This document shows, piece after piece, positions 34,272-59,623 of a stretch of DNA of 64,000 nt. Within the stretch, counting starts at the first letter, position 1, and every line of letters begins with the position of its first letter. The notes beneath the pieces are model-generated. The model searched no databases. It was given only the letters and a program-made list of their open reading frames with translations, and had not been told where the DNA came from. This DNA is from a virus (Duplodnaviria > Caudoviricetes), in IMG/VR virus record IMGVR_UViG_3300024322_000001; one strand, 5' to 3'. The translations under genes were made by a program, and so were the position numbers.

Positions 34272-34279
34272 TATAAATA
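34272..34279 (-). promoter_or_regulatory. Late-promoter-like TATTTATA upstream of neck gene
   Basis: Recurrent upstream octamer. Confidence 0.5.
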
Positions 34280-35066: not shown

Positions 35067-36650
35067 TTATACCTGAGCTAAATCAGATACGTAAATCTTA
35101 CCGTAGAATTCTGGACGAATCATCTTCTTAGCATAACGAGTCATCAATCCTTTACGTGGAGTAAAGGTATCTGGATCGTATACTAGAGGAGTCATCATTA
35201 ATGGTACGTAAGGAGCATATACTGCACCTGCTTCCAAGAACTGTCCACCTCTATAACCAGTTAAGATTACGTTTTCAGTCATGTAAGGGTTTTTGTATAC
35301 TTGGAATCTGTTCGCTAAAGAACCGATTTTCTGTACGCCCATTGCAAATTGAGCTTTATCACCGTCAGTTTGTGCAGCATATCCAGGAATTGATTCTAGG
35401 ATTGTTGCAACAGAAGGAGAACATACTACGAAATTTGCTCCACCTCTTAACGTTTTTTGGTGAATCTTGTTAGAAACTTTCTGTAGTTTAGTACCTAAAG
35501 TTTGGAACCACTGACCTTGAGTGTTGTAGAAATCAGAAGTACCTGTAGACCAAGCTGATCCATCCCATACTTTATTGTTTTCTGCAGACCACTTTTCAGT
35601 TGTAGCAGCACCTTGGATTAACATATCAAGTAATTCAAGATCGATCTCCATAGAGATGTACTCAGATAACATTGAAGTCAATTCTGCTTCAGCGTCAATT
35701 GAATGATAAGCATTCAAATCTTGAGCGAATTCTGGAGTCCACTGTGCTTTTAACTTTCTAGTCTTAGCAACAATCGCCTCAGAAGCTAACTGTACGTCGA
35801 TTTCTGGAATAGAAACTGAAGGACTTACATTGTTACCGTCTGCTCCAGAAGCTTCAAAGTCACCTCTTGTGTTATCACCTGGTTGTACGTGGTATTTGAT
35901 TTTCTTGTTACCTGAAGAACCAGCGTCTCCAGTTGCAACAACGAATACGATGTCTGAACCATCTACTCTTGTGTACTGTCCGTAAGAAGCAATACCGTCA
36001 AGTTGGAAAGCTCTTACACCTTCTAAATCTGCATCAGCAGGAGCTGCTAATGTTACAGTATCGAAAGCAGTTAAGTCTAAACTTGCATCGTATCCTACAT
36101 CTGCTAATGAAGCAGTTGCTTGTACAGTTGCAGAAATGTTTCCTGAAGTTTTCTCGTTAATAGAGTAACCGAACTGTCCAGCGCCGTAAAGACCACCAGC
36201 AACGTCAGTATCTACTGCCATTTTAGATGATGCTTCAGTTACGTTACCGTACATGTTGTCTCCGTCACCTCTACCGTTTACAGCAGAACCATATTTAAAG
36301 TCTAGATAAAATACTAGACCTGAAGGTAGGTTCATTGGTTGTACACTTACAAAGTCTTGCGCTACGATTTGAGCGAATACTTTTCTTACAAGTGGTAAAG
36401 CAACACCAGCCCACTGCTCACCTGCACCAGCTGTAAAGCCAGCACCTGTTCCAGAAGCACCTGTGTTGTTTGCTTCAGCTACGATTTGTTTTGCTTGGTT
36501 TTCAAGTACCATTGCCATGTTGTTTTTGGCTTTTTCGTCTTGAATTCCTTCCAACAAACCAGAAGCTGACCACTTATCAGCCAAACGCGCTGCGTCTGCC
36601 TGTAGGCTCTTAAAATTGTTAGAGCTTTCTAATAATTGGTTTAATTCCAT
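35067..36650 (-). CDS. gp23: Major capsid protein (gp23-like)
   Basis: VQPMNLPSGLVFYLDF, AKTRKLKAQWTPEFAQDLNAYH.IDAEAEL, YAPYVPL, TRYA. Confidence 0.95.
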   Translation of the reverse strand: MELNQLLESSNNFKSLQADAARLADKWSASGLLEGIQDEKAKNNMAMVLENQAKQIVAEANNTGASGTGAGFTAGAGEQWAGVALPLVRKVFAQIVAQDFVSVQPMNLPSGLVFYLDFKYGSAVNGRGDGDNMYGNVTEASSKMAVDTDVAGGLYGAGQFGYSINEKTSGNISATVQATASLADVGYDASLDLTAFDTVTLAAPADADLEGVRAFQLDGIASYGQYTRVDGSDIVFVVATGDAGSSGNKKIKYHVQPGDNTRGDFEASGADGNNVSPSVSIPEIDVQLASEAIVAKTRKLKAQWTPEFAQDLNAYHSIDAEAELTSMLSEYISMEIDLELLDMLIQGAATTEKWSAENNKVWDGSAWSTGTSDFYNTQGQWFQTLGTKLQKVSNKIHQKTLRGGANFVVCSPSVATILESIPGYAAQTDGDKAQFAMGVQKIGSLANRFQVYKNPYMTENVILTGYRGGQFLEAGAVYAPYVPLMMTPLVYDPDTFTPRKGLMTRYAKKMIRPEFYGKIYVSDLAQV

Positions 36651-36673: not shown

Positions 36674-37699
36674 TTATTTAATAATTCCAGCTAATTTTTG
36701 CATTCTCTGAACTGCAGAGGAAACTTCGCTAATCACTTCTGGCTTACTTGCTGTAGTTCCAGTTGCTTTGCTTGCTCTTCCTTTGTGTTCTTTGATAGTA
36801 GTCTCTTTTTTAATAACTACATTTTCGTTAACTGTTTCAAATACTAACTTAACTTCTTTAACTGTTTCAGCTTTATCGAAAGCAGCAATAATGTTTACTT
36901 TTTGTGCTTCGTTTAAGTTGTTAGCTTTGAAAATTTTGTTTACATAAAGTAACTTAGAGTTTAGTAAATTAACTTCGTTAAGTTCACTTCTCAAAGTTTC
37001 GATAGTTTCTAAAGCGCTTTTAAGTTCTTCTTTAGTTTCTTCATTAACAGGAGCTTCAATTGCAACTTCTTCCATTGCATCTTCTTCTTTCTTACCTTCT
37101 TCCATTTCTTCTTCGCTTTCGCCTTCTGAAATAGCATCAAGTTCTGCTAATAATTCGTCTAAGTCAATCTCTTCGTCACCTTCTTCGCCAGCCATAGGAT
37201 CGCCCTCGCCTGGTTCTTCTAATTCTGCTCCAGCGTCTAAATCAGCTCCAACTTCAGCTCCCATATCTTCAGCACCTCCGCCCATTTCTTGTGCGATAAT
37301 GTCTCTGATTAGGTCTTTGAAATCTTCAACTGAAAGATCTGATAGATCTTCGTCGTCTGCTGGCTCATCCTCAGATGCAACTTCTTCTTCTTCAGCCTCG
37401 TCTGCAGCTTCTTCTGCATCATCCTCAGCTTCTTCCATTGCTTCTTCTTCACTGTAAGATCCTTCTTCTACTTCTTCTTCGGCTACTTCAGTAGTTACTT
37501 CTTCTACATCATCTTCCATTTCGTTTACTACTTCTTCTTCAACAGATGAATCTTCCATCTCTTGTAGTTTAGCAGCTAACATATCTTTTAGATGAGGAGT
37601 CAAAGACTCTTCTAAAGCTTCCTTAGCGTTAGCAATAGCGGCTTCTCTTACAGACTTAGCTTCAGCAATAGCTTGCTTGAATAAATCTTTGTTTGCCAT
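36674..37699 (-). CDS. Prohead scaffolding/core protein (gp22-like role)
   Basis: Very acidic, coiled-coil, directly upstream of MCP, C-terminal RMQKLAGI. Confidence 0.75.
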   Translation of the reverse strand: MANKDLFKQAIAEAKSVREAAIANAKEALEESLTPHLKDMLAAKLQEMEDSSVEEEVVNEMEDDVEEVTTEVAEEEVEEGSYSEEEAMEEAEDDAEEAADEAEEEEVASEDEPADDEDLSDLSVEDFKDLIRDIIAQEMGGGAEDMGAEVGADLDAGAELEEPGEGDPMAGEEGDEEIDLDELLAELDAISEGESEEEMEEGKKEEDAMEEVAIEAPVNEETKEELKSALETIETLRSELNEVNLLNSKLLYVNKIFKANNLNEAQKVNIIAAFDKAETVKEVKLVFETVNENVVIKKETTIKEHKGRASKATGTTASKPEVISEVSSAVQRMQKLAGIIK

Positions 37700-37828: not shown

Positions 37829-38356
37829 TTATGCAGATGCTGCAACAGCACCAGCTATCTCTGCTCCGACTACTGCTATATCTCTTCCTTTTAGTGCTGC
37901 TTTTACTGCTCCTATAGTAGCGGTTGCTACATTAGCACCTCTAAGAGCTTGCATTGCTCCTATACCTGCTTTGATACCTAATCCTGCTAACATAGCTATA
38001 AATAATCCTTTAGCAACTAATTCTCTTTTCTTTTCATCTCTTACGAAAGGCTTAATAAAACCTGAGATAGCTTTAACTATGTTAACTTCATTATTATGTG
38101 CCCATTTATGAACTGCATCAGCTTTATCAGCTGCTTTATCTAAACCTAGTTTTTTAAGTCCTTTAGCAGCATACTTACCTAAAACGTCTAGTACTGTATT
38201 AGAAGCAAGTGCCCATCCTAATATACCTACTACAGATATAACTTCATTAACTTGTCCTTCTTCTCCTTGTTTACCAAACTCGGCTTCCATAGCTTTTGCT
38301 AATTCTTGACCTAATTGAGTTTCGTCGCTTTCTAATATTATGTGTGCTAATTTCAT
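37829..38356 (-). CDS. Hypothetical protein with MKLxxIILE leader and hydrophobic helices
   Basis: MKLAHIILE.S; VISVVGILGWALA and GLFIAMLAGLGI segments. Confidence 0.65.
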   Translation of the reverse strand: MKLAHIILESDETQLGQELAKAMEAEFGKQGEEGQVNEVISVVGILGWALASNTVLDVLGKYAAKGLKKLGLDKAADKADAVHKWAHNNEVNIVKAISGFIKPFVRDEKKRELVAKGLFIAMLAGLGIKAGIGAMQALRGANVATATIGAVKAALKGRDIAVVGAEIAGAVAASA

Positions 38357-38934
38357 TATGCTCTTAATATATCATTTATAATAGAATCTAAGTTTTGAAA
38401 TTTAGATACTTTTATTTTACCTTCTGATAATGCTACTGGGTTCATAAATGCACCGTGAGTAGAAGGATTTGAAACAAAATCCCAACATACTAGTTCGAAA
38501 TCGTCTTGCACTTCTAATGCACCTTCATTTGTTTGCTGTACTGATCCTGTACCTCTAGATGAGATACCGATTGTATGGCCTGCTTTTATGATTTCTTTTA
38601 CGATGTTTCCGGAAGGAGTATTTAATAACTCTACACGTCCCATAAGGTCGTTTCCTTTCCACCATAAGTCTTTTACTATGTGAGAGGCGTTCTTAAGAGA
38701 GACAATAGGAGACTCAGGGTGATCAAGTTCTCCGAATGCATTACCATTCTCTACAAACTCTTTTATGTACTTTGAGCATTCTCTCTCTAAAATAGGCTTA
38801 CTATATGTACGTCCATTTTGGTTTTTAGATACTGCTCTCTGCATAACCCCTTCGACTTCGTATACACCGGGTCTTTCCTTAGATTCTCTAAGAATTGATT
38901 TGAATGGTGTTACGTCTACTAATAATTGTGCCAT
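38356..38934 (-). CDS. gp21: Prohead maturation protease (gp21-like)
   Basis: NQNGRTY, GELDHP, GISSRGTGS, DFVSNPS. Confidence 0.92.
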   Translation of the reverse strand: MAQLLVDVTPFKSILRESKERPGVYEVEGVMQRAVSKNQNGRTYSKPILERECSKYIKEFVENGNAFGELDHPESPIVSLKNASHIVKDLWWKGNDLMGRVELLNTPSGNIVKEIIKAGHTIGISSRGTGSVQQTNEGALEVQDDFELVCWDFVSNPSTHGAFMNPVALSEGKIKVSKFQNLDSIINDILRA

Positions 38935-38945
38935 GTTGTATTATT

Positions 38946-39356
38946 TTATTGAAAAATATCGTACGCTACTCCTTCGAATACTGAATATGTTAATTTATGT
39001 TCAGTTCCTTCTGGGGTATAGTCCCCATAGAATCCGTCTTCATAGGATACTGGGAATTCTCTGTCTGATTCTTCAGATTTATAATCAGCTACTGTTGATA
39101 GTCTGTGTTTCTCTAATCGCTTAGCTACTACTGCTGCTGGTTCAGGTTCTCCGATATCTACTTGTCCTCCTCCGAGGCCTGCTGTTCCACCGTCCATTTC
39201 AGCTACTATAACATCTTTAGTTATATCGACACCAAATTTTCGAAAAGCTTGCTCAACAGAGTAATCTGCATCTTCCACTACTTCTTCGTTTAATTGTCTA
39301 CTGTTAGTAGTTAAGTTGTTTTCTGTTAAGAACTTTCTTAGGTTAAAATTGTTCAT
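38946..39356 (-). CDS. Putative capsid-internal protein, MNNF-leader family
   Basis: MNNFNLRKFLTENNLTTNSRQLNE leader. Confidence 0.7.
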   Translation of the reverse strand: MNNFNLRKFLTENNLTTNSRQLNEEVVEDADYSVEQAFRKFGVDITKDVIVAEMDGGTAGLGGGQVDIGEPEPAAVVAKRLEKHRLSTVADYKSEESDREFPVSYEDGFYGDYTPEGTEHKLTYSVFEGVAYDIFQ

Positions 39357-42764: not shown

Positions 42765-42793
42765 CTTATACGTTTACTATATATAAATATGCA

Positions 42794-44683
42794 CTACTTA
42801 CCTAAATCCTTTATTTGATCTTCGTTTAATAGTCCCTCGTTGTCCTCACTCGTATCTTTAGTAAAAACAATTTTCTTTAAAAGATCTTCGTTTTTAGCTA
42901 AAATAGTCTTTGCTACTGTGTTTTCATTGACATTATCGGCATCGCTAGGAAAACCACCTTTCATACCATGTTGACCTAAAGGATCACGTCCTCCTAGTCC
43001 TGCTGTAGTACCGTATACAGAAGCTTTTTCTTTTGGTCTTCCGCCTTCTGGGCCTGGCTGTCCCCATTCGCTATACCCTGCTGGTAGATTAGCTTGTTCT
43101 CCACCTTTTGGTGTAGCTGTTGCTCTTCTACCGTACATAGAGGCTAAGTCGTGTGGTGTACCGTAAGTTACTCCAGATGAAGCTGGGTCGTTACCTTCTG
43201 CTTCTATCTGTGCTCTTCTAAATTTACGTTTTTCATCTTCTACCATTAGATCTCTCATTTCCATATAAGCATCTTCTGATAAGTCAAATATATTTTCGTA
43301 AATATAATCTGTAGAGAATAATTTAGAATCCTTCATTTGAGTAGCTAAATCTACTTTTTCTTTAAGTAGTGCAACTTTCTCTTGTTCAAATATAATAGAA
43401 GGAGTAGTTAACTTGATTTCAAAGTTAGTAAGTGATTCACCTGAGAATCCTTGAGTGTATAAGTGAACTAGAGCTATCTTAGTAAGCTCTGATTCCATGA
43501 TTCTTTGAATACGTTCTACTGTTCTTGCAAATCTAATATCTTCTGCAGCTAAAGTAGCTTTACCACTTAAGTCACCTTCGTAGCCAAAGTATGCTTTAGG
43601 TATCTTTAATGCTGCAAATAACTTAGATTGTAAGTATTGAACGTCATTAGTACCATCGTAATCTAATCCTTTGGTAGTTTCTATTTTAGTAGCTGTATCT
43701 CCTCCTCGTACAGGTAGATAGAAATCTTCCATCATATTCTGCATATTGAACTTCAAGTTATATTGACCTGTTTCTGGATCAACATAAGGAGTTTTCTTCA
43801 TTCCATTGATAGTCTTTTGCATAAACTGCTCAACTTCATTTGGAGGAATAGAACCTACATTAATATAAAACATTCTCTTTTCTGGTGCTCTCATGATTCT
43901 ATGAATCAACATTGCATCTTCCATTAAAGAGGTTTGTTTAAATATTTTTCTAGCTGGCTCTAAATAAGATCTACCGTAAGGTAGGTAATGAGTATCAGAT
44001 ATTAATCTGAAGTGAGCCATTTCGTAATTATCAATCGTAATATTATTATTACGTTTTCTTCCTCCAGGCATATAGTTAGAATCAGTAGATGCTGCTATAC
44101 CGTCAGGATCTAATTCAAATTCTACTTTTTGAGGATTTTCAGGATCGTTACCTTCATGTCTAGCGATGTGGTAAACTGTATAGGGTAAGACGTTATAAAC
44201 ACCGTACTTCTCTGCTATCTCTAGCTTTAAGAAAAAGTCTCCGTATTTAACCATATTTCTAGTCCAAGACCAGAGGTTAAACTCAATATTTAAAACGTCA
44301 TAAAATAAGTTGTAAAGTACTCTTTGAATATTTTCATCAGAAGATTTAATTCCTAGTACTTCATTTTGATCATTCTTTACTGTTGCTTCATCTGCTATAA
44401 TATCGAGTGCAGAAGCTATAATTGGATCAGTATCCATTGCCTCGTAATCAGAATATAATTGAATACGTAGAGTCTGATAATTAAGGTTTGGATTAAATAT
44501 GTTTGCTTTGTTGTAAGTATATAAACGAGTAAACCTATCCATTAAAGAATTGGTTTGATACTTACCTGTCGTCTGTATATTATTTGTGTCTACAACTTTT
44601 AGTTGTGTTCCACCCACATTACGTATTACTACGTCGGTAGAAAAAAGTCTTTGTAAACGTCCAAATAGCGATTTATCTGCCAT
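42794..44683 (-). CDS. gp20: Portal protein (gp20-like)
   Basis: MEDAMLIHRIMRAPEKRMFYINVG, EDFYLPVR, ALKIP, EDIRFARTV. Confidence 0.95.
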   Translation of the reverse strand: MADKSLFGRLQRLFSTDVVIRNVGGTQLKVVDTNNIQTTGKYQTNSLMDRFTRLYTYNKANIFNPNLNYQTLRIQLYSDYEAMDTDPIIASALDIIADEATVKNDQNEVLGIKSSDENIQRVLYNLFYDVLNIEFNLWSWTRNMVKYGDFFLKLEIAEKYGVYNVLPYTVYHIARHEGNDPENPQKVEFELDPDGIAASTDSNYMPGGRKRNNNITIDNYEMAHFRLISDTHYLPYGRSYLEPARKIFKQTSLMEDAMLIHRIMRAPEKRMFYINVGSIPPNEVEQFMQKTINGMKKTPYVDPETGQYNLKFNMQNMMEDFYLPVRGGDTATKIETTKGLDYDGTNDVQYLQSKLFAALKIPKAYFGYEGDLSGKATLAAEDIRFARTVERIQRIMESELTKIALVHLYTQGFSGESLTNFEIKLTTPSIIFEQEKVALLKEKVDLATQMKDSKLFSTDYIYENIFDLSEDAYMEMRDLMVEDEKRKFRRAQIEAEGNDPASSGVTYGTPHDLASMYGRRATATPKGGEQANLPAGYSEWGQPGPEGGRPKEKASVYGTTAGLGGRDPLGQHGMKGGFPSDADNVNENTVAKTILAKNEDLLKKIVFTKDTSEDNEGLLNEDQIKDLGK

Positions 44684-44698
44684 TAATGTGTATTTTTA

Positions 44699-44706
44699 TA
44701 TAAATA
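44699..44706 (-). promoter_or_regulatory. Late-promoter-like TATTTATA upstream of portal
   Basis: Recurrent upstream octamer. Confidence 0.5.
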
Positions 44707-44708
44707 GT

Positions 44709-46283
44709 CTATTTTAATAACCACGAAATATCTTCTGTGGTTCGTCCATTATCTATAATATAAGGATTATTTTGCGGACTTCCAACTGATTTTATTATAG
44801 CTTTATTCTTAGCATTTAGATTAGTAAATGAAGATAATTGAGCTCTAGCTAGGTCCATCCCTTGTTGTCTTAATCTTAATGCAGTATCTCTAACATATAG
44901 AGCAGTTGCTGCAGAGATAAGTAAATCATCATTATAATTAGTTTGTGCTTGAGGTTTTCCGTTTTTCCATACAAATACTCTCATCTCTCCTAAAAGCCTT
45001 TTAGACTGTATAGTAACGCCTCTTTCTCTAATATACTCAATCATCTTAGCAATTACTAAAGGTCTTGTTCTTACGGACATAGTAAAGCCTGGGACTAATT
45101 TATCTCTTTCATACTTGCTCATATAAGACTCTACAGTTTCCATTTGAGATGTAGAACTATAGTATAAATTACTATATTGACGTTCCATCACCTGTTCTAT
45201 TGTAGCCCATCCTATATTTGCGTTTTCTATTACTAACAATGCTTGATTGTATTCTGTCGCTATTCCTACTAAGACATTTCCGTAATCCTTAGGAGATAAT
45301 TTACCTTTATATTCTGCTACTTGAGTACAAGTTTCTACGTCAAATACGTGAAATGCAGAATAATCCGCAGAGTCTCCTCTAGCAACATCTGCTACTACCA
45401 TATATGATTTTGTGTAGTCAACTCCTTCCCATATCCATAAATTACCATCTACACCTCTTCTCTCTAAAGGATCTTTTAAGTATGTTTGTTCATAAAACAT
45501 CATGTCGTCTGGTTCAAATACTGTATCACCAGAAGCTAAGAAATCGCAATCACATTCCTGTCCTGCCATTCTAGGACCTAAATCTGAGTCTTGTTTTTCT
45601 CGCCATTCTTGGTCCCTTTCAGGATGTACTGTCCATGGTAATCTTATAGGTAAAAATGAATTCTCACCACTTTCTGCTTTATCCCAAGTCTGATGAAACC
45701 AGTTACCAATTCCGTTAGGAGTTGATAATGCCATACACTGTCCACCTGTTGCTAAGGTTTGTTGTGCTGCTGTAAACGTTTCTTGAATGTTATCAATAAA
45801 GGCTGCTTCATCGATAAGCAGTAGTGATACTGCCTCTGACCTTGCGGCATCGGCGTTAGAAGATTTAGCTGTAATTTTCGATCCATTCTTTAGTCTAAGT
45901 GATAATTTATTTTTCTCTACTGCTGGTAATCTTAACCATTTAGGTAGTTGATCATACATAAACATAGTCTTAGATACTAAGTTTCTTGCAGTAGCTTGAG
46001 TTGTTGCTAGAGCAAGTACGTTCTTATCCTTATGAAACAACATAAGCCACAGAGAGTAACCTGCAGCTAAAGTGGATATACCTAACTGTCTTGACTTGAG
46101 AGTAATTAGATATTGATGATCTCTAAATAAATGTAATACTTTATCCTGAAATGGATATAAATTAAATAATATACGTCCTCTTGTAGGATGCTGTATATAG
46201 CAATACTTCCTCATGAAGTAGGCCGGATCTTTAGCACACTTAAAGTACTCTTGTGCTATTATTTTTTTTATATCTTTTGCCAT
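44709..46283 (-). CDS. gp17: Terminase large subunit (gp17-like)
   Basis: LYPFQ, KSRQLGIST, LLIDEAAF, STPNG, ADVARG, DDL. Confidence 0.95.
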   Translation of the reverse strand: MAKDIKKIIAQEYFKCAKDPAYFMRKYCYIQHPTRGRILFNLYPFQDKVLHLFRDHQYLITLKSRQLGISTLAAGYSLWLMLFHKDKNVLALATTQATARNLVSKTMFMYDQLPKWLRLPAVEKNKLSLRLKNGSKITAKSSNADAARSEAVSLLLIDEAAFIDNIQETFTAAQQTLATGGQCMALSTPNGIGNWFHQTWDKAESGENSFLPIRLPWTVHPERDQEWREKQDSDLGPRMAGQECDCDFLASGDTVFEPDDMMFYEQTYLKDPLERRGVDGNLWIWEGVDYTKSYMVVADVARGDSADYSAFHVFDVETCTQVAEYKGKLSPKDYGNVLVGIATEYNQALLVIENANIGWATIEQVMERQYSNLYYSSTSQMETVESYMSKYERDKLVPGFTMSVRTRPLVIAKMIEYIRERGVTIQSKRLLGEMRVFVWKNGKPQAQTNYNDDLLISAATALYVRDTALRLRQQGMDLARAQLSSFTNLNAKNKAIIKSVGSPQNNPYIIDNGRTTEDISWLLK

Positions 46284-46290
46284 AACTATC

Positions 46291-47814
46291 CTATATTGGA
46301 TTTATTTTTTCTATTTCTAAAGTGCCTTGAGTATTACCATTGTTCCTTGCACTTATCTGGACGAAGTGTGGTTTACCTCGTTTTAGTATGTGAAATAATA
46401 TTCTTACTCCTCCGTAACTATCTGTATCTAATATCTTAATATCTTTATAATCCCCTTCTTTATTGTAGAGAACTATATTAGTACCTTGAGGGTATGATTC
46501 TACTGTAGCATTAGTTCCTGATGAGTTACCAATTATTTTAAAAAAACCAGGGTTAACATCAGTTAAAGACATTGCAAAGCCTGCTAATGCAACTACTGCG
46601 TCAGCTATTTTACCCGGTGGAAACTTCTTAAATAGGAATTCAATAGCTTTCAAAGCCGCATATTTTCCTCTAAGTTGATCTATATCAAAATCTTCTAAAC
46701 TTATACTTTCTAAGCTGTACGACACATTATCTGCAGATCCAACTAAAGAGCTTATTTTACTCCTTAATGGTACGATTGCTTCTTTAAACTGATCTACATC
46801 GTACCCTTTTTCATCATTAGTTAAATTATAATCTGATCTAACTTTAGAGTATTTAGCAAGAAGACCTTTTGCTTTTCCACCTTGTGCTTTTTGCTGTTTT
46901 AAAGAAACTGCTACTAAAGAAGCTTCTTCACCTGCTACGTTTGTAGTACCTCCCCATTCTTGCACAAAGAAATTATTAATTATTTCAATATTGTCTGCAG
47001 AATTAATATCGGGTATACCTTTTAATTGTACGTATAAATCTCCGGGGCACCATTTGTCTTTATCATATCCGGTAAGTTGTTTGGCCTTACTTCTTATCTC
47101 ATCAAATTTTCCTGAACGTATAAGTTTAGCTTTAGGGTATTTTTCCTTAATAGCAAGAGCACTAGATAGAGGTTGGTTAACAAAGTTTACATGCGAGTTT
47201 TTAGGTTCAAGCGCTGATAAGTATGAAACAATTTTTTTGGTGCTAGTTGAATCTTCTCCAGGAATTTCTGCTGGCATTGTACTTATTAAACGTTCTGCTC
47301 TTTCTGAAATGTTTTCTACTGTAAATGGTGAAGTAATATCACTAACATAGAATAAAGAAACTAAACCTTCTTTTACATCTGTATCTGCACTATCTTCTGC
47401 TGCTGTTCCTTTTACTATAATCGAATAATCATTTCCCCTAAACGTGAGTAATGATTGTCCTACTGAAGAACTCGATGATCTGGCTTTAGTGTAAGAGGTT
47501 ATGTCTTCTTCTTGGTTAGCTAGTTTTTCTAATTCTGTAAATACCTCTCCTCTAAGTGTGCTTGAACTTGCTCCTCTAGATGGAATTTCAGAAAATTTTA
47601 AAACAATCTTAGATGTACCTGCAGTAGCTTCTATATCACCGTATCTGTTTATTTTACTCTTAATAAGGTTTACTAGATCTTTATTTTCATTTAATAAAGG
47701 AATAAAACCAAACATAGATTCAAACAAAGCCATATCCTCTTGACTATTAATGTCAGGATATCCTTTTTTGGTCTTATATGACCATTCTAATATGACTCTA
47801 TCGATAAGATTCAT
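46291..47814 (-). CDS. Putative PD-(D/E)xK nuclease with an N-terminal leader
   Basis: DKWCPGDLY...VAVSLKQ restriction-endonuclease-like motif; leader MNLIDRVILEWSY...LLNE. Confidence 0.5.
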   Translation of the reverse strand: MNLIDRVILEWSYKTKKGYPDINSQEDMALFESMFGFIPLLNENKDLVNLIKSKINRYGDIEATAGTSKIVLKFSEIPSRGASSSTLRGEVFTELEKLANQEEDITSYTKARSSSSSVGQSLLTFRGNDYSIIVKGTAAEDSADTDVKEGLVSLFYVSDITSPFTVENISERAERLISTMPAEIPGEDSTSTKKIVSYLSALEPKNSHVNFVNQPLSSALAIKEKYPKAKLIRSGKFDEIRSKAKQLTGYDKDKWCPGDLYVQLKGIPDINSADNIEIINNFFVQEWGGTTNVAGEEASLVAVSLKQQKAQGGKAKGLLAKYSKVRSDYNLTNDEKGYDVDQFKEAIVPLRSKISSLVGSADNVSYSLESISLEDFDIDQLRGKYAALKAIEFLFKKFPPGKIADAVVALAGFAMSLTDVNPGFFKIIGNSSGTNATVESYPQGTNIVLYNKEGDYKDIKILDTDSYGGVRILFHILKRGKPHFVQISARNNGNTQGTLEIEKINPI

Positions 47815-47826
47815 TATATTTACTTT

Positions 47827-48825
47827 TTAATGATCGTCTTCGTCTTCGTCTTCATCATCACTATAAAATTGGTCATAATCAGTTCCAAAACTCATAGCAA
47901 GATCTTGCATAAGCCAATTAGGTACCTCATCACCTTCGAATTTACCTCCTTTAGCATAAGATCTTAAATCATTTTGAAAAGATTCAACTGTATCATAATA
48001 CTGTTCTATACTTTCATACTCGTGTCCCTGTTCATCAGCAAGACCTAATAATTCTTGGGTAGCAGTAAGGTACTTATTATAATTAGGATCAAGTACATAA
48101 TGTTCAAAGCTTTTATCATTTTCAAAATCATATCCACTTACATAAAAAGCACCTTCTTGTGGTTTATCGCCTAATACTTTATATCCCTTACCGTGTGAAG
48201 GGCTAGAGGGATCAAACCATTGTTCTTCTTCAAATAAGAGGCCTTCAGCTAAATAAGCTTTTTTCAATTGATGTTGCATAGCTTCTCTTTCTTCCCTGTC
48301 ATACTGAAATGAATTGGGGATTATATGATCAAAATCGTATGCATTTTTTATTTTTCCAAATTGTCTAACGTAGCGTTCTAAATCTTCTTGTGTATCAGTA
48401 ACACCGTAAGGGTTAAGGTAAACATCTACAAATTTATCAAAAGCTTTTTTTTGACCTTTATCTAACCCACTTAAATCAACATTAGATAAATCATGTCTTT
48501 TTCTTGGTGCTGATGGGTTACTGTCTCCAGCCATTTCATCGTTATAGTAATCAACTGCCATATCTACGATATCACCAGAAGGTACATCTTCTTCTTTTTC
48601 ATCAGAGTAATATTCTACAGAACTATCTATGATTGCTTTTAAATCTTTATCAGAAATATCTGGTAATTGTCTTTTAATACCTGCTTCTACTTCTGCTTTA
48701 TAAGCAGGATCATAGATGGCATCATTAACCTCATCAAAATCGTAAGTTAATTCTTCTTTTAATAGCTTACTATTAGAAGTAAGTTTATTTTCTTTTAAAA
48801 ATTTTCTTAGGTTAAAGTTATTCAT
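47827..48825 (-). CDS. Putative capsid-internal protein, MNNF-leader family
   Basis: MNNFNLRKFLKENKLTSNSKLLKE leader; acidic. Confidence 0.7.
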   Translation of the reverse strand: MNNFNLRKFLKENKLTSNSKLLKEELTYDFDEVNDAIYDPAYKAEVEAGIKRQLPDISDKDLKAIIDSSVEYYSDEKEEDVPSGDIVDMAVDYYNDEMAGDSNPSAPRKRHDLSNVDLSGLDKGQKKAFDKFVDVYLNPYGVTDTQEDLERYVRQFGKIKNAYDFDHIIPNSFQYDREEREAMQHQLKKAYLAEGLLFEEEQWFDPSSPSHGKGYKVLGDKPQEGAFYVSGYDFENDKSFEHYVLDPNYNKYLTATQELLGLADEQGHEYESIEQYYDTVESFQNDLRSYAKGGKFEGDEVPNWLMQDLAMSFGTDYDQFYSDDEDEDEDDH

Positions 48826-48844
48826 TGTATTTGCTTTAAATCTT

Positions 48845-49141
48845 TTAATATTCTACTTCTTTTCCTTCAGCGTTAAATTTATATATAACTGCATTATCTC
48901 CATCTCTCATTTCGATAGCTACTACTTCATCCTCTTCTCTCTCATTTTCTGGGACTGGTGTGATAGTATCTATTCTCATACCGTCGTAGTTGGTGTATTC
49001 TCCTACTGTATATACCTCTCCGGTTGGAAAAGTAACAGAATTAATAATTTCTTTTTTAGTAAATTTTACTTCACTTAAAAGTTTAGTAGAGTTAGTATCT
49101 CTATTTTCTATTAAAAATTTTCTTAAATCAAAGTTATTCAT
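48845..49141 (-). CDS. Putative capsid-internal protein, MNNF-leader family
   Basis: MNNFDLRKFLIENRDTNSTKLLSE leader. Confidence 0.7.
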   Translation of the reverse strand: MNNFDLRKFLIENRDTNSTKLLSEVKFTKKEIINSVTFPTGEVYTVGEYTNYDGMRIDTITPVPENEREEDEVVAIEMRDGDNAVIYKFNAEGKEVEY

Positions 49142-49177
49142 TGTATTTGTTTTTATATATTTAGACTACTAATTATC

Positions 49178-49441
49178 TTAATCCTCAGGACCTTCGATCT
49201 TATCTCCTTTTCTAACTACAAGCCAATCTTTAATTCTATCATGGTACTTATCATCTACATCATCCAATGCAACTAATTTACCGTGTTTATCAGAATAGTA
49301 TAGATCTGCAGGGGCAATTTCGCCAGGGAAATAAAGTGTTATTCCTGGGGTTTCATTAAGTTCATCTTCATTTTCTACTGCTCTACTATTAGAGGTAAGT
49401 TTATTTTCAGTTAAAAATTTTCTTAAATCAAAGTTATTCAT
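49178..49441 (-). CDS. Putative capsid-internal protein, MNNF-leader family
   Basis: MNNFDLRKFLTENKLTSNSR leader. Confidence 0.7.
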   Translation of the reverse strand: MNNFDLRKFLTENKLTSNSRAVENEDELNETPGITLYFPGEIAPADLYYSDKHGKLVALDDVDDKYHDRIKDWLVVRKGDKIEGPED

Positions 49442-49468
49442 TTTATTTATTTTTATTTGATGTTTATA

Positions 49469-50158
49469 CTAATCTAAATCTCCTAAAGAGTTGAGAAAGT
49501 AATTAGCTATTTCAATTCCATCTTCATCGTCTCTCTCTTCAAAGTATTCTAAGTATTGATCTGCAGAAAGAATAAGAGCTTGGACATCATCAATACCGTC
49601 TTTTCTAAACGGCTTAGTTCCCATTATAATTTTTCTTCCTTGAGGTGTAGACTTATACATATCGGTTAACTTTTTAGCTACTTTCAAGTATTTCGGATCT
49701 CCAGTCTCTGGTTGATGTACAGGTTTCACTGGTTTACTTGCTTTTTTCCAAACTTTAACAGCTCGTGTAATCCACAAACGATTACCATAGTTGTCTAATC
49801 CATCAAAATATTTTACTTCTCCATTTTCATCTTTTACTAAATCCCTTGTTCCTGTGTGACCAATTTTTTTAGTATGTGATTCTTTCCTTTTATTTTTATA
49901 ATAATCTCTTACTTCTTCTTCTGAATTCAACTTCATAATTTCATCAGCATAGAATTGATAATCATACTTAGAATTGTACGGAACTGGGAATGCACGGCCG
50001 TAACTTTCATCTTCCCACTTAATCAGCGCTATTTGTTGAGGTGTTGCTCCTGAGATATTTACTGTATAATCTGCAATACCACTAGACGTATATGTATCTG
50101 CACTATTAGAAGTAAGTCTATTTTCTGTTAAGAATTTTCTTAAATCAAAGTTATTCAT
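49469..50158 (-). CDS. Putative capsid-internal protein, MNNF-leader family
   Basis: MNNFDLRKFLTENRLTSNS leader. Confidence 0.7.
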   Translation of the reverse strand: MNNFDLRKFLTENRLTSNSADTYTSSGIADYTVNISGATPQQIALIKWEDESYGRAFPVPYNSKYDYQFYADEIMKLNSEEEVRDYYKNKRKESHTKKIGHTGTRDLVKDENGEVKYFDGLDNYGNRLWITRAVKVWKKASKPVKPVHQPETGDPKYLKVAKKLTDMYKSTPQGRKIIMGTKPFRKDGIDDVQALILSADQYLEYFEERDDEDGIEIANYFLNSLGDLD

Positions 50159-50173
50159 TTTATTAATTTTATA

Positions 50174-52462
50174 TTAAGCTTCTGGATCTTCTCCTGGTTC
50201 TTCAAAGTCTATTGGTTCTCCGCCTAAGTCTGCACCTCCGGCATCATCTGCTGGTGCTTCATCTCCTCCAGCGTCTCCACCAAGAGCATCAACTCCTGCA
50301 TCATCTCCTCCGCCTCCTGCATCAGAACCAGGGAAGTCGCCTCCTCCACCTCCACCGGAACTTCCAGTATCGGTATCAGCAGCTTCTGCATCTCCAGACC
50401 CGCCCATTGGTCCTTCTTTGTAAAGCCTAGCCAACTTATCTAAAGCTTGTTGATAATCATCTATCTTATCGATGTAATAGCGTTTACCTAGTATCTGAGC
50501 TTCAAATGCTGTTCCAGTCCACTTAAGAATATAAGATTGACCGTTTTTAATGTTCACCCTAAATGATGATGGTCTAGGCGAAATCCAGTCAATACTGGTT
50601 ACAAATTCTTTAAACTGATCAGTTTGTAGCTTGATTATAGCTTTTTTTAATGTTGGGAACTTCCCTAGTATAATATCTGTTGCATCCTCTAATATAGTCT
50701 CTTTAGGAGCATCCATATCAGGTTCTTCTTCTGGTACTGTTTCTTCTTTTATTACTCCTTCTTGATAATACTCATCATCGTCGTAATCATCATAGTCATC
50801 GTAATCATCTTCTTCTTCAAATTCAGGCTCATAATCAAATATACCTCCTAAAGTATTCTTGGTGTACTCTCCTTCTTTTGACTCTATATAGTCTAAGATA
50901 GAAATTAGCACATCTTTGATTGTTTTTTCGTAATCAGTACCTTCTTTAAATATTTTTGCTACTACAGCTCTTAATGGATGATTTGCGTTAACTAAAAATG
51001 AGTGAGCAGGTCCGGCAGTTTCAATACCATATCCTGTAAAATATTCATCACCGTCGTTATAGTATCTATAAATAATTCTATTGATAGCTCTTAACATTTC
51101 ACCTTCTACTGTTTCTGCATCTCCGTTTCCAGGTACTAACTTATCGTATAAAGGTTCGTTTCTATCTTCTAATTCTTTACCTACAAATTCAGTAACTACA
51201 TCTTCAGTAGTATAAGCATCGTATCTATCTTGATCACTTTGTGCTGCATTTAGCATATCGTTTAGGTCATGATCTTTTTGGAAAGCAGAATTTTTTAAAG
51301 TTACTGCGTTAGGTAAATCATCTCCTCTACCTATGTGGAGTTCAAAATCCTGTCCTTCTTTATAGTTAGATTGTAAATGATCAACTACATCCTGTATTCT
51401 ATCTAAATCGTACCCAAAGGTAACTAATTCCTCATATGCTTCATTTATCTTTCCTACTGCTTGATCATACGACATATTCTTGTTATATACTGATGCTGCT
51501 TTTTCAATAGCATTATCAATCTTATTTAATTGATCACCGTACATATCAGCTACTGGTCCTCCTGTTGGTTCGATTTCTGGATCGTTTTCCATATCGCTCA
51601 TTACTTGAGCTCTTTTAATCTTTAACTTACGAACAATCTCTCTTGCTTTCTCTTCTTTTCTTTGTCCGCTAGCATATGCTCTTGCAGCTGCTTTGCCTTC
51701 AGGAGATTTTTTATAAGCGTCTAATTTTTTCATATCATCAGCTCTCATCTTAGCAACTCTTGCTCTCATAAGAACTGGATCGTTATAGTCTAATGCTTCT
51801 TGTACAGGTTTTACTCTGTCGCTAGGAAATCTTTTAACTGTGCTACCGTCGAATCGTACAAAGGTTTTGTCACCTTCTACTTTTTCAACAGAACCAGTAC
51901 CGAACATTCTACCGTCTTTATCGTATACATGAACTAAGTCATAATGATCGTTGATACCTTCTTCTATTGAAGTAAAAGCTTTCTCAATACCTTCCATCAT
52001 TCTCTGCATCTTAAGCAGATTATACTGTTCAGGTCTCTCTGTTCTTAAGTATCTTTGTAATTTTCTGAAATTAGTTCTGGTTAACTCGAAAAACTCTCTA
52101 GCTGCTTCATCTTTTCTAATATCATCAGACCCCATTAACTTTTTAATATCGCCTATAATATCTGAGAAATTTTTATAAAGAGAACCAAATGAAGGTAGTG
52201 TTATTACCTTATGTCCAATAGTACCTGTTGTAGTATTTTTCTCTGAAGCTTTAAAGTATGTTGACATATCACTACTAAAGAAATCGTGTTTACCATCAAA
52301 CTTTGGTTCACCATACCTTTTGACGATACCTGCTCTTTGCTTATCCGTAAGATCCTCCCATTGAGTAGTTCTGTTACCAGTCTCTTTTTCAATTTGAGCT
52401 TTTGACATTTCATCAATGACTTCGCTGTACGATTCTAATATTAGTTTTTCAAGCTTATGCAT
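50174..52462 (-). CDS. Large modular head-region protein (putative polyprotein)
   Basis: 762 aa; leader MHKLEKLILE; modules bounded by VIDE, SIEE, PVQE, KINE, VVTE, VIKE, TILE; Gly/Asp-rich tail. Confidence 0.65.
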   Translation of the reverse strand: MHKLEKLILESYSEVIDEMSKAQIEKETGNRTTQWEDLTDKQRAGIVKRYGEPKFDGKHDFFSSDMSTYFKASEKNTTTGTIGHKVITLPSFGSLYKNFSDIIGDIKKLMGSDDIRKDEAAREFFELTRTNFRKLQRYLRTERPEQYNLLKMQRMMEGIEKAFTSIEEGINDHYDLVHVYDKDGRMFGTGSVEKVEGDKTFVRFDGSTVKRFPSDRVKPVQEALDYNDPVLMRARVAKMRADDMKKLDAYKKSPEGKAAARAYASGQRKEEKAREIVRKLKIKRAQVMSDMENDPEIEPTGGPVADMYGDQLNKIDNAIEKAASVYNKNMSYDQAVGKINEAYEELVTFGYDLDRIQDVVDHLQSNYKEGQDFELHIGRGDDLPNAVTLKNSAFQKDHDLNDMLNAAQSDQDRYDAYTTEDVVTEFVGKELEDRNEPLYDKLVPGNGDAETVEGEMLRAINRIIYRYYNDGDEYFTGYGIETAGPAHSFLVNANHPLRAVVAKIFKEGTDYEKTIKDVLISILDYIESKEGEYTKNTLGGIFDYEPEFEEEDDYDDYDDYDDDEYYQEGVIKEETVPEEEPDMDAPKETILEDATDIILGKFPTLKKAIIKLQTDQFKEFVTSIDWISPRPSSFRVNIKNGQSYILKWTGTAFEAQILGKRYYIDKIDDYQQALDKLARLYKEGPMGGSGDAEAADTDTGSSGGGGGGDFPGSDAGGGGDDAGVDALGGDAGGDEAPADDAGGADLGGEPIDFEEPGEDPEA

Positions 52463-58042: not shown

Positions 58043-58074
58043 CGATAAGACTTTAACTATAAATAGAGCTAATT

Positions 58075-59574: not shown

Positions 59575-59593
59575 AACCTTTATTTTATATATA

Positions 59594-59623
59594 AATATAC
59601 GAAAAAATTAGGTAGTCTCCAAC
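59594..59623 (-). promoter_or_regulatory. Bacteroidota-type promoter GTTG-N20-TATATT overlapping a TATTTATA motif
   Basis: Conserved spacing. Confidence 0.6.

Follow-up and report, generated by a model that had tools for sequence, protein, structure and literature searches.

Our analysis of the head region of an uncultured T4-like phage with Flavobacterium-type hosts identified five genes that begin with a common 24-residue tag. Judging from DNA comparisons, related phages exchange such tagged genes at the tag, with switch points that fall within this leader. We propose that the leader is probably a cleavable capsid-targeting propeptide that doubles as a recombination handle.

Five genes with a common leader

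The window, by which we mean the whole 64,000-nucleotide stretch of DNA that was analysed, contains five minus-strand ORFs beginning MNNF[DN]LRKFLxEN, encoding 229, 87, 98, and 332 aa in tandem and 136 aa 8.5 kb off:

49469..50158, minus strand: cassette 1, leader and 229-aa cargo gene; sole site FLTE at residues 9-12
49178..49441, minus strand: cassette 2, leader and cargo gene (87 aa), with sites ending at residues 12 and 30
48845..49141, minus strand: cassette 3, leader and cargo gene (98 aa), with sites ending at residues 12 and 24 (LLSE)
47827..48825, minus strand: cassette 4, leader and 332-aa gene composed of two cargo modules
38946..39356, minus strand: fifth gene with the leader (136 aa), adjoining the prohead protease gene on its upstream side, at a second hotspot
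48754-48825, 50087-50158, 49370-49441, 49070-49141, and 39285-39356, minus strand: the 72-nt (24-codon) leader segments taken for the alignment, the codon view, and the identity table

A six-frame motif scan found no sixth leader copy in the window, and a repeat finder grouped the five leaders as one five-copy family. Within their first 39 nt, the four tandem leaders are mutually 87-95% identical, and the copy at 39356 shares 77-85% identity with them; by nt 73-144 of the five genes, identity is down to 22-40%. The tandem leaders differ among themselves by only 0-2 synonymous changes, and across the first 13 codons the leader of the 136-aa gene shows 5-7 synonymous and 1-2 nonsynonymous changes relative to the array leaders. 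The ORFs, the motif scan, and the repeat family thus agree with a preliminary description of this DNA, which had claimed a near-identical leader on four tandem genes and a fifth copy elsewhere. The start context CAAA[TC]ACA-ATG that it had noticed in three copies is indeed found 3 times, against 0.08 expected.

The same description held the bodies, in genes of 87-332 aa, to be unrelated. BLASTP clustering detected no body-to-body similarity among the five genes, and every probability in the profile-profile comparison was below 10%, with shallow profiles; both results bear the claim out. The 332-aa gene is itself a two-module fusion: module A (about residues 25-196) aligns with the cargo that stands alone in L084_199, module B (about residues 197-332) has a stand-alone leader-tagged counterpart (P0095, 51% identity over 125 aa), and the junction, YLAE, fits L-x-E. 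The 229-aa gene has 226-aa orthologues at another array position in the relatives L029 and L046, and in a collection of 5.8 billion proteins its product has only close homologues (83-100%). The AF2 model of this protein is of mediocre confidence (pLDDT 62), with residues 6-12 helical, and a Foldseek search of the PDB with it gave no match at E <= 0.001. None of the five bodies matched Pfam or PHROG, the 332- and 229-aa proteins had no credible sequence match in the PDB, the ESM Atlas yielded no usable match for the cargo, and Pfam run over 143 leader-bearing representatives returned stray matches only. An anti-defence role of the bodies accordingly drew no supporting domain, fold, or sequence match in these searches. 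The window bodies are acidic (pI 4.2-5.8) and so do not resemble the small, highly basic cargo of IPI-III type; across the family the median pI is 4.5, with 65 of 78 bodies below pI 6.

Cassette exchange among relatives

The array lies between two conserved genes:

46291..47814, minus strand: conserved 507-aa flanking gene, whose ATG bounds the variable array on its downstream side
50174..52462, minus strand: conserved flanking gene (762 aa) on the upstream side of the array

In the closest relatives, identity is 93-96% for the terminase and 97-99% for the 507-aa flank, yet the arrays, of one to four cassettes, differ in copy number, content, and order. Written as protein lengths, the order is 229-87-98-332 in the window, 98-226-115-73 in L029, 98-226-157-105 in L046, and 98-199-73-104 in L084; L080 and L018 have one cassette each, that of L018 (L018_76) being a homologue of the 87-aa cassette. 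Blocks of shared homology stop 48-72 nt inside the leader of the next gene. The 98-aa cassette, for example, belongs to a 415-nt block that is 95% identical to L029; the block starts 27 nt ahead of the ATG and extends 72 nt into the following leader. The homology of the window to L029 and L046 begins at the 3' end of the 762-aa gene, takes in the first 48 nt of the first leader, and ends there. At the other edge, the window DNA is 98-99% identical to that of L029 and L084 from position 47815 or 47822 onward, and the cassette just upstream has no homology. One and the same intergenic spacer precedes differing bodies. That blocks end at the leader is partly to be expected, because the leader is the only sequence common to all of these genes. 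The preliminary description had supposed that cargo genes are gained, lost, or swapped through the leader; the array is in fact not invariant among relatives, its homology blocks end in the leader, and the bodies do not behave as diverged paralogs. As to transcription, we rejected a late promoter for each cassette, since the T4-type TATAAATA box is absent from the coding strand before the window cassettes.

Spread of the leader and selection on the peptide

A search with the leader motif, which the preliminary description had suggested, retrieved many unrelated bodies: 31 body clusters among IMG/VR leader proteins and 1069 clusters at 50% identity among public metagenome proteins in a large protein library. 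The leader occurs at N-termini, in frame inside fused two-cargo proteins, and at the C-termini of fused proteins; 66 of the 150 top representatives have two copies each. In L080_386 and P0155, an in-frame internal leader separates modules that elsewhere are separate leader genes. P0155 is encoded on a 165-kb contig.

Across 80 distinct leader DNAs, synonymous codons vary freely and the peptide stays fixed, so the peptide is the object of selection. Lineage L055 retains the core NFDLRKFLTENKLT intact, with terminase, capsid protein, and protease only 48-56% identical. The region upstream of the leader is merely A-rich across the family. A tblastn search of 50,697 phage records with the leader matched immuto phages only, and the leader is confined to the phage lineage that carries an S77 protease, where it lies mostly in the head module. 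A cellular origin was considered and rejected: 596 Gb of prokaryote genomes gave 9 pattern matches, of which only one was a genuine leader; it lies on a MAG contig of probable phage origin.

Head genes around the leader genes

The window covers the head region of a T4-like myophage, with an S77 protease, Gp23, a T4 portal, and a T4-type terminase. The closest cultured relative is Flavobacterium phage immuto, whose large terminase is 76% identical.

38356..38934, minus strand: prohead core protease of T4 gp21 type (Pfam Peptidase_S77, E 1.3e-35; PHROG 207 head maturation protease, E 5.7e-54)
36674..37699, minus strand: 341-aa acidic protein encoded where T4 has its scaffold gene (gp22), flanked by the genes for the protease and the major capsid protein
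35067..36650, minus strand: major capsid protein, Gp23 family (Pfam Gp23, E 2.7e-82; match starts at residue 78)
42794..44683, minus strand: T4-type portal (Pfam Portal_T4, E 4.6e-73), conserved, downstream of the array
44709..46283, minus strand: large terminase (Pfam Terminase_6N, E 4e-11), conserved, downstream of the array

The gp21-type protease is presumably the enzyme that removes the leader. The 341-aa protein had no match in a Pfam search, and several relatives match it at 93-98% identity over the N-terminal ~50 residues; we infer from its position that it is the scaffold and a candidate docking partner of the leader. The N-terminal extension of the major capsid protein contains IVAE at about residue 58. 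Head genes adjoin the leader gene in 72 of 94 viral loci, which reveal two hotspots for leader genes, one upstream of the terminase and one beside the protease, where relatives hold different leader genes. Immuto, whose host is Flavobacterium sp. LMO8, has four tagged genes, with the products gp076, gp077, gp003, and gp092; 2 of the four lie among replication genes rather than head genes.

Protease-type motifs in the leader

All five window leaders contain L-x-E at residues 10-12, a point that the preliminary description had missed. A second site, which it had reported at the end of the shared sequence, is present in four of the five genes: [LIV]-x-E ends at residue 24 in three and at residue 30 in the 87-aa gene (ELNE), and the 229-aa protein has none. 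The pattern is general. The top 150 database representatives contain 216 leader copies, of which 215 have the first L-x-E at residues 10-12 and 197 have a second [LIV]-x-E, most commonly at +22 (160 copies). In IMG/VR, 77 of 85 proteins have a [LIV]-x-E at the end of the leader, compared with 25% of background segments, and in the same top 150 representatives 62 of 68 internal polyprotein leaders have a [LIV]-x-E no more than 14 residues before them. The motif returns precisely at the variable boundary even when the spacer sequence differs. Within bodies, the observed/expected ratio for [LIV]-x-E is 0.92, against 1.11 in controls, so depletion is not clear, while the 229-aa body has 0 internal sites against 2.8 expected.

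We assume that the specificity of this protease can be carried over from T4, which would make the L-x-E and [LIV]-x-E of the leader cutting motifs of T4 type. Since the tag ends in an aliphatic-x-Glu site and the phage encodes the matching S77 protease type, the capsid-targeting reading fits.

Proposed mechanism

Based on these findings, we propose a mechanism for the loading and exchange of tagged proteins. During prohead assembly, residues 1-12 (M-N-N-F-[DN]-L-R-K-F-L-x-E) would dock the protein on the scaffolding core. The gp21-type S77 protease would then make two cuts, one following Glu12 and the other following the second [LIV]-x-E, near residue 24; the leader fragments would exit, the cargo would remain in the head, and it would probably enter the host together with the DNA. 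Because the tag would act as a peptide, it may sit N-terminally or in frame between fused modules. In the DNA, homology for recombination may come from the 40-70 nt of near-identical leader together with a short upstream stretch, the unit exchanged being a whole cassette: a body, an intergenic spacer, and the beginning of the following leader. Through this homology, whole cassettes could be gained, lost, reordered, or fused. The preliminary description had already called the leader both a capsid-targeting tag and a recombination handle. The adjacent S77 protease, the enriched [LIV]-x-E, and the shuffled arrays speak for that view, whereas its cleavage, packaging, and injection steps are drawn by analogy with T4. 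Points against our preferred reading include the acidic bodies, the immuto copies in the replication module, the single site of the 229-aa protein, and the lack of clear [LIV]-x-E depletion.

Alternative explanations

The leader might target its proteins to the prohead without their being injected, if they were accessory core or scaffold components that are degraded and expelled. In T4, gp22, gp67, and gp68 are core and scaffold proteins that are chopped up and expelled at maturation, and core genes 67 and 68 lie directly upstream of the protease. One leader gene occupies just that place, the bodies are as acidic as scaffold and core proteins are, and they are not depleted in [LIV]-x-E. Proteins of this kind would be expected to be conserved, yet here content and copy number vary at ~95% terminase identity, there are more than 1000 body clusters, and the 229-aa body is free of internal sites; we consider this explanation unlikely. 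It is rather improbable, too, that the leader is a handle for a non-capsid partner or process, such as a phage chaperone, a localisation factor, or regulated degradation, with L-x-E incidental in an amphipathic helix. Such a handle would account for a peptide clearly under selection and for the two immuto copies in the replication module, but not readily for [LIV]-x-E placed exactly at the variable boundary despite spacer differences and again ahead of internal leaders, or for a leader restricted to the S77-protease lineage and found mostly in the head module.

The 87-95% DNA identity of the tandem copies, with so few synonymous differences, and the upstream CAAAYACA context that they have in common would suit a DNA or RNA element, acting in translation initiation or regulation or purely as a recombination site, of which the peptide is a by-product. 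Family-wide, however, the DNA varies synonymously around a fixed peptide and the upstream region keeps only its A-richness, in-frame leaders lie mid-ORF far from any start, and no stable or common RNA fold emerged beyond shuffled controls (z -1.1 to +1.8), which makes this explanation very improbable. We find it scarcely credible that the five genes are diverged full-length paralogs of which only the N-termini are still recognisable: the tandem arrangement and common start would fit, but the bodies are dissimilar by BLASTP and by profile-profile comparison (<10%, from shallow profiles), the lengths range from 87 to 332 aa, and each body has its own orthologues elsewhere, differently combined. 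Sec/Tat and lipoprotein signal peptides have a hydrophobic core of ~10-15 residues following a basic N-region; the leader, polar and charged, lacks any hydrophobic run, and we rejected this identity.

Comparison with known systems

Our preferred reading, a cleavable capsid-targeting propeptide, recalls the capsid-targeting sequence (CTS) of T4. In T4, gp21 cuts the sequence MKTYQEFIAE once (PMC8442874); residues 4 and 7 of this sequence are important in targeting, residues 8 and 10 in processing (PMC9026906). The T-even internal proteins are diverse, with only that tag in common (PMC3012670). Like the CTS of IPI, IPII, IPIII, and Alt, which gp21 removes, the leader is a short N-terminal tag on unrelated proteins with an aliphatic-x-Glu end. 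The likeness to MKTYQEFIAE is a pattern seen by eye only, an aromatic residue at position 4 followed by F-[IL]-x-E, with no sequence homology detected. Unlike the T4 sequence, which has 10 residues and one site, the leader has 24 residues and two sites and also occurs internally and C-terminally in fused proteins. T4 IPI-III are basic proteins, whereas the cargo here is mostly acidic.

The T-even internal-protein locus is variable and multi-gene, and Repoila et al. (1994, as cited in PMC3012670) reportedly described it. As there, gene content differs between close relatives that keep the same targeting leader, a plausible exchange site; unlike there, we find up to four tandem cassettes, two hotspots, reordering, and two-cargo fusions. 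The preliminary description had contrasted this array with the T-even locus, a contrast that holds only as a difference of degree. Short repeats also flank small genes in the PeSL (promoter-stem-loop) cassettes, which mediate modular gene shuffling in T4-type phages and offer homology for cassette exchange in hyperplastic regions; PeSL repeats are noncoding and regulatory, whereas the repeat here is translated and under protein-level selection.

Cutting at more than one site has precedents, in Alt, which is processed at both ITE-6 and LTE-619, and in the multi-site propeptides of giant phages (PMC5694885). The ejection proteins of phiKZ, 201phi2-1, and SPN3US have multi-site propeptides, all cut after Glu, and the SPN3US paralogs gp53 and gp54 have an identical N-terminus, MANFVKSKLARESVE (PMC5694885, PMC9026906), whose M-x-N-F-x3-K-x3-E spacing is that of our leader. 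The giant phages differ in using an S80-family protease with A/S/G-x-E sites, against an S77 protease and L, I, or V at P3 here, and their propeptides are not one portable tag across hundreds of unrelated bodies.

Implications

A broader view, which we hold tentatively and at somewhat short of an even chance, is that an aquatic Bacteroidota T4-like lineage uses one portable 24-residue, protease-site-bracketed capsid-loading adaptor, at N-termini, between modules, and at C-termini, to load and exchange more than 1000 families of mostly acidic, domain-less proteins as injected effectors, the adaptor being more conserved than the capsid proteins. If the tag does carry proteins into the head, it would list candidate injected proteins of abundant aquatic phages, 1069 clusters that are almost all domain-less, in a catalogue that needs no homology to known effectors. 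The leader would also be a candidate portable packaging tag for Bacteroidota phages, as the T4 tag serves in E. coli phage engineering, and it would provide a natural case of a translated tag doubling as a cargo-shuffling handle, including the fusion and fission of cassettes.

A shared leader peptide on five unlike genes

The sequence MNNF[DN]LRKFLxEN starts five open reading frames (ORFs), all within a run of minus-strand genes:

49469-50158, minus strand, leader gene, 229 aa
49178-49441, minus strand, leader gene, 87 aa
48845-49141, minus strand, leader gene, 98 aa
47827-48825, minus strand, leader gene, 332 aa
38946-39356, minus strand, distant fifth leader gene, 136 aa

A six-frame scan of the whole 64 kb (up to 3 mismatches) found no sixth copy, and a repeat finder placed the five sites in one repeat family. 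Over their first 39 nt the four tandem leaders match each other at 87-95% and differ by 0-2 synonymous codons; the fifth is 77-85% identical to them there, with 5-7 synonymous and only 1-2 non-synonymous differences. So few synonymous differences among the tandem leaders, compared with the fifth, fit either a common origin inside the array or exchange in recent times. Past nt 72 the genes are only 22-40% identical, the five bodies (the remainder of each protein) fall into five separate BLAST clusters, and profile-profile comparison of the bodies found no similarity (all probabilities <10%). The shared leader on five unlike genes is therefore real, as the preliminary description had claimed, and far beyond chance; the CAAA[TC]ACA-ATG start context that it noted at three copies was also confirmed (3 found versus 0.08 expected).

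The spread of the motif in viral protein databases, a point raised earlier, was followed by an IMG/VR scan and a profile search. The scan, using a degenerate DNA pattern with all synonymous codons allowed, gave 106 matches on 94 viral stretches, nearly all 1-5 codons past an ATG; the profile, built from the first 32 leader residues, matched 1069 proteins at E <= 0.001 and 63 at E <= 1e-10 among 1.84 billion cluster representatives. GenBank phage records hold the leader only in phages of the immuto group (Flavobacterium phage vB_FspM_immuto is the nearest cultured relative), at four places in each. Of nine matches of the DNA pattern in 596 Gb of prokaryote genomes, eight lie away from starts and are due to chance; the ninth, on a MAG contig, is a true leader. 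The papers searched do not mention the motif, and Pfam and PHROGs lack a model for the leader.

Across 80 distinct leader DNAs, synonymous codons are free to vary (Asn, AAT 51 and AAC 29; Phe, TTT 42 and TTC 38; Leu, CTT, TTA or CTA), and leader positions outside the search pattern are also conserved (K12, L13, T14, S17, K/R18, E22). In the lineage of L055 (L-numbers denote leader-bearing viral stretches compared with the window), the core NFDLRKFLTENKLT is unchanged, though identity to the window is no more than 47-56% for terminase, portal, capsid protein and protease. RNA folding of the leader region gave nothing stable or shared, and upstream DNA across the family holds nothing beyond A-richness. 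Selection acts on the peptide, not on the DNA.

A protease motif in the leader

T4 gp21 cleaves after the Glu of aliphatic-x-Glu, as at the Alt sites ITE-6 and LTE-619 (PMC5694885), and the T4 tag MKTYQEFIAE is taken off internal proteins (PMC8442874). L-x-E stands at residues 10-12 of every window leader (FLTE, FLKE or FLIE). The second site, at which similarity had been said usually to stop, ends at residue 24 in three of them (QLNE, LLKE, LLSE) and at residue 30 in the 87-aa protein; the 229-aa protein has none, although its L029 and L046 orthologues carry LVKE there. A second [LIV]-x-E ending within aligned positions 14-32 occurs in 77/85 distinct IMG/VR leader proteins (mode 22, minor mode 17 where the spacer is shorter) versus only 25% of equally long body segments. 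Among the 216 leader copies of the 150 best database representatives, 215 have the first site and 197 the second, 160 at +22. The second site is kept despite a wholly different spacer (...ENRNSVKE..., ...ENKQPIQE..., ...ENKLKE...); such persistence would be expected of a cleavage site at the tag/body boundary.

Separately, [LIVM]-x-E ends at residues 8-13 in 21 of 33 proteins from the head-side half (window 32816-63830) and in 0/28 encoded below 32.8 kb (window 1-32800). Typical head-side N-termini are MKLAHIILE, MKLLDIILE, MHKLEKLILE, MIKLSTLILE and, in the capsid protein, MELNQLLE. These look like a second, shorter N-terminal propeptide class; if so, many proteins here, enzymes included, would be protease substrates.

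Gene neighborhood

The window covers the head genes of a T4-like myophage. Its Gp23 major capsid protein (E 2.7e-82), T4 portal (E 4.6e-73) and T4-type terminase were recognized by Pfam; the large terminase shares 76% identity with its immuto counterpart and <=51% with the next relatives. Directly after the fifth leader gene lies the protease gene:

38356-38934, minus strand, Peptidase_S77 prohead protease, T4 gp21 type (E 1.3e-35; PHROG 207)

Of the 94 viral stretches, 72 have head-module genes flanking the leader gene, with one hotspot from the 762-type gene (upstream of the array) to the 507-type gene (downstream) or terminase and another directly before or after the protease. This placement is not absolute: the two immuto copies outside its array are found beside the DNA polymerase/SSB genes and near the primase gene.

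In the scaffold candidate (341 aa, 36674-37699), the acidic middle diverges among several relatives that keep the N-terminal ~50 residues at 93-98% identity; the leader being equally conserved, this N-terminal end is a candidate surface for its docking.

Reshuffling of cassettes

Variation of the array among relatives, a check proposed in the preliminary description, was examined between the same two flanking genes.

Arrays between the 762-type and 507-type genes (protein lengths in aa; identity to the window)
Window: 229-87-98-332
L029: 98-226-115-73; terminase 95%, 507-aa flank 97%
L046: 98-226-157-105; terminase 95%
L084: (98)-199-73-104; terminase 96%, flank 99%
L080: single fused 386; terminase 93%
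L018: single 76 (87-type)

In immuto the array is 333-99, with the 507-type gene on its opposite side. Between the window and L029, BLASTN blocks start just upstream of a cassette ATG, cross body and intergenic spacer, and stop inside the next leader:

49168..48754, 95.4% identity, ending 72 nt into the next leader
50164..49384, 85% identity, ending 58 nt in the next leader
50748..50111, 80% identity, ending 48 nt in the next leader

The downstream flank is 98% identical from the exact ATG of the 507-aa gene onward. The spacer after the 98 cassette is common to the window, L029, L046 and L084 and is followed by unlike bodies; the spacer after the 229/226 cassette is likewise conserved before unlike bodies. 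Content, number and order thus differ, and the blocks end inside the leader, the outcome that the preliminary description would count in favor of a recombination handle. Homology would end there whatever the mechanism, because the leader is the sole sequence that all cassettes share; it is the reordering, together with conserved spacers joined to unlike bodies, that shows real exchange. Immuto encodes a RecA/RadA-type recombinase.

Cassettes also fuse and split, as three cases show. In L080, a 386-aa ORF joins three parts: module one of the 332-aa protein seen in the window, an in-frame leader (...NEISNFNLRKFLVENKLTSNSRSVNE...), and a module that L095 encodes separately as a 180-aa leader gene. 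P0155 (334 aa; P-numbers are leader-bearing database proteins) runs from a 229-type body through an internal leader to a cargo known elsewhere as a stand-alone gene. The window's 332-aa protein has two modules joined at YLAE, which fits L-x-E, and the second is the stand-alone, leader-tagged P0095 (51% identity over 125 aa). Among the 150 best representatives, 66 have a second leader copy, internal or C-terminal, besides the N-terminal one, and 62/68 internal copies have another [LIVM]-x-E within the 14 residues before them. The tag is thus position-independent, and its retention between fused modules speaks for a function as an excised peptide rather than as a signal marking starts.

The plus strand of the window carries TATAAATA (coding-strand reading, TATTTATA) 21 times, the minus strand 2 times; intergenic DNA, ~1.8 kb in all, holds 16 of the 21 sites, most of them 14-35 nt before a gene start. 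Examples of the intergenic sites, all plus strand, are:

34272-34279
42782-42789
44699-44706
58058-58065
59590-59597

It may serve the phage as a late-type promoter or as some other signal near gene starts. The leader cassettes have no such site in front of them and so are probably transcribed together with upstream genes.

Cargo and related proteins

Bodies of leader genes are 69 to 385 aa long and mostly acidic (pI 4.2-5.8 in the window; family median 4.5; below 6 in 65/78), and a few have a hydrophobic helix. No domain, sequence or fold match was found for any body. Inside the bodies [LIV]-x-E is not clearly depleted (observed/expected 0.92, versus 1.11 in controls). T4 IPI* is an anti-defense precedent (PMC3012670), and by analogy an anti-defense role of the bodies is a reasonable guess, though none of these domain, sequence or fold searches supports it.

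Immuto gp003 (L099:1803-2318), which is encoded not in the head module but between the genes for DNA polymerase and SSB, forms with loci L009, L048 and L075 a cargo family having a Gly/Ala-rich hydrophobic helix after the leader. Immuto gp077 (L001:12606-13607) is leader-tagged, coiled-coil-like and Glu/Lys-rich; its GenBank name, "cob(I)alamin adenosyltransferase, PduO," looks spurious, and Pfam gave no PduO match on 143 leader-bearing representatives of the wider family, a set that excludes gp077. Many gp077 relatives carry the leader at both ends (P0015, P0017, P0019, P0028, P0030, P0045, P0055; P0051, P0085, P0086, P0091), with a stop directly past the second site (...SRTQE) or after ...FLAENRK. 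The C-terminal leader either reflects loss of a cargo where leader and body meet or is a true C-terminal propeptide of the kind seen in T4 Alt.

The 769-aa protein (39374-41683), encoded between portal and protease, starts with MKTATQKYHAVLEG and its immuto counterpart (L001:18553-19635) with MRTLQEKYNAIQEG, both closer to MKTYQEFIAE than the main leader is. In the IMG/VR stretches L050, L068, L085 and L091 the homologue of the 769-aa protein has a leader remnant at its C-terminus (...NNTNFDLRKFLKENK, then stop), and the protease gene follows directly downstream.

Interpretation

By analogy with T4, we consider it rather likely that the leader is a capsid-targeting propeptide removed by the S77 protease, with leader DNA doubling as a recombination handle. 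In the T4 tag, targeting depends on residues 4 and 7, and processing on residues 8 and 10 (PMC9026906). Leader residues Phe4, Phe9, Leu10 and Glu12 would be the counterparts of T4 Tyr4, Phe7, Ile8 and Glu10, a likeness of pattern only. The second half of the leader would act as a spacer that includes a back-up site; giant-phage propeptides also have redundant sites (PMC9026906, PMC5694885).

The tagged proteins might instead be expendable core components, which seems unlikely, or the leader a peptide handle for another partner, which we regard as quite unlikely. It is very improbable that the leader is a nucleic-acid element. That genes with such unlike bodies are diverged paralogs is extremely improbable.

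The principle itself is already established for T-even phages, where cargo genes at a variable locus share a targeting tag and a gp21-type protease is present. The new features here are a different, longer leader with two sites, its presence inside fused proteins, cargo that is acidic and lacks domains, the documented reshuffling, and the scale of the system in aquatic phages of Bacteroidota.
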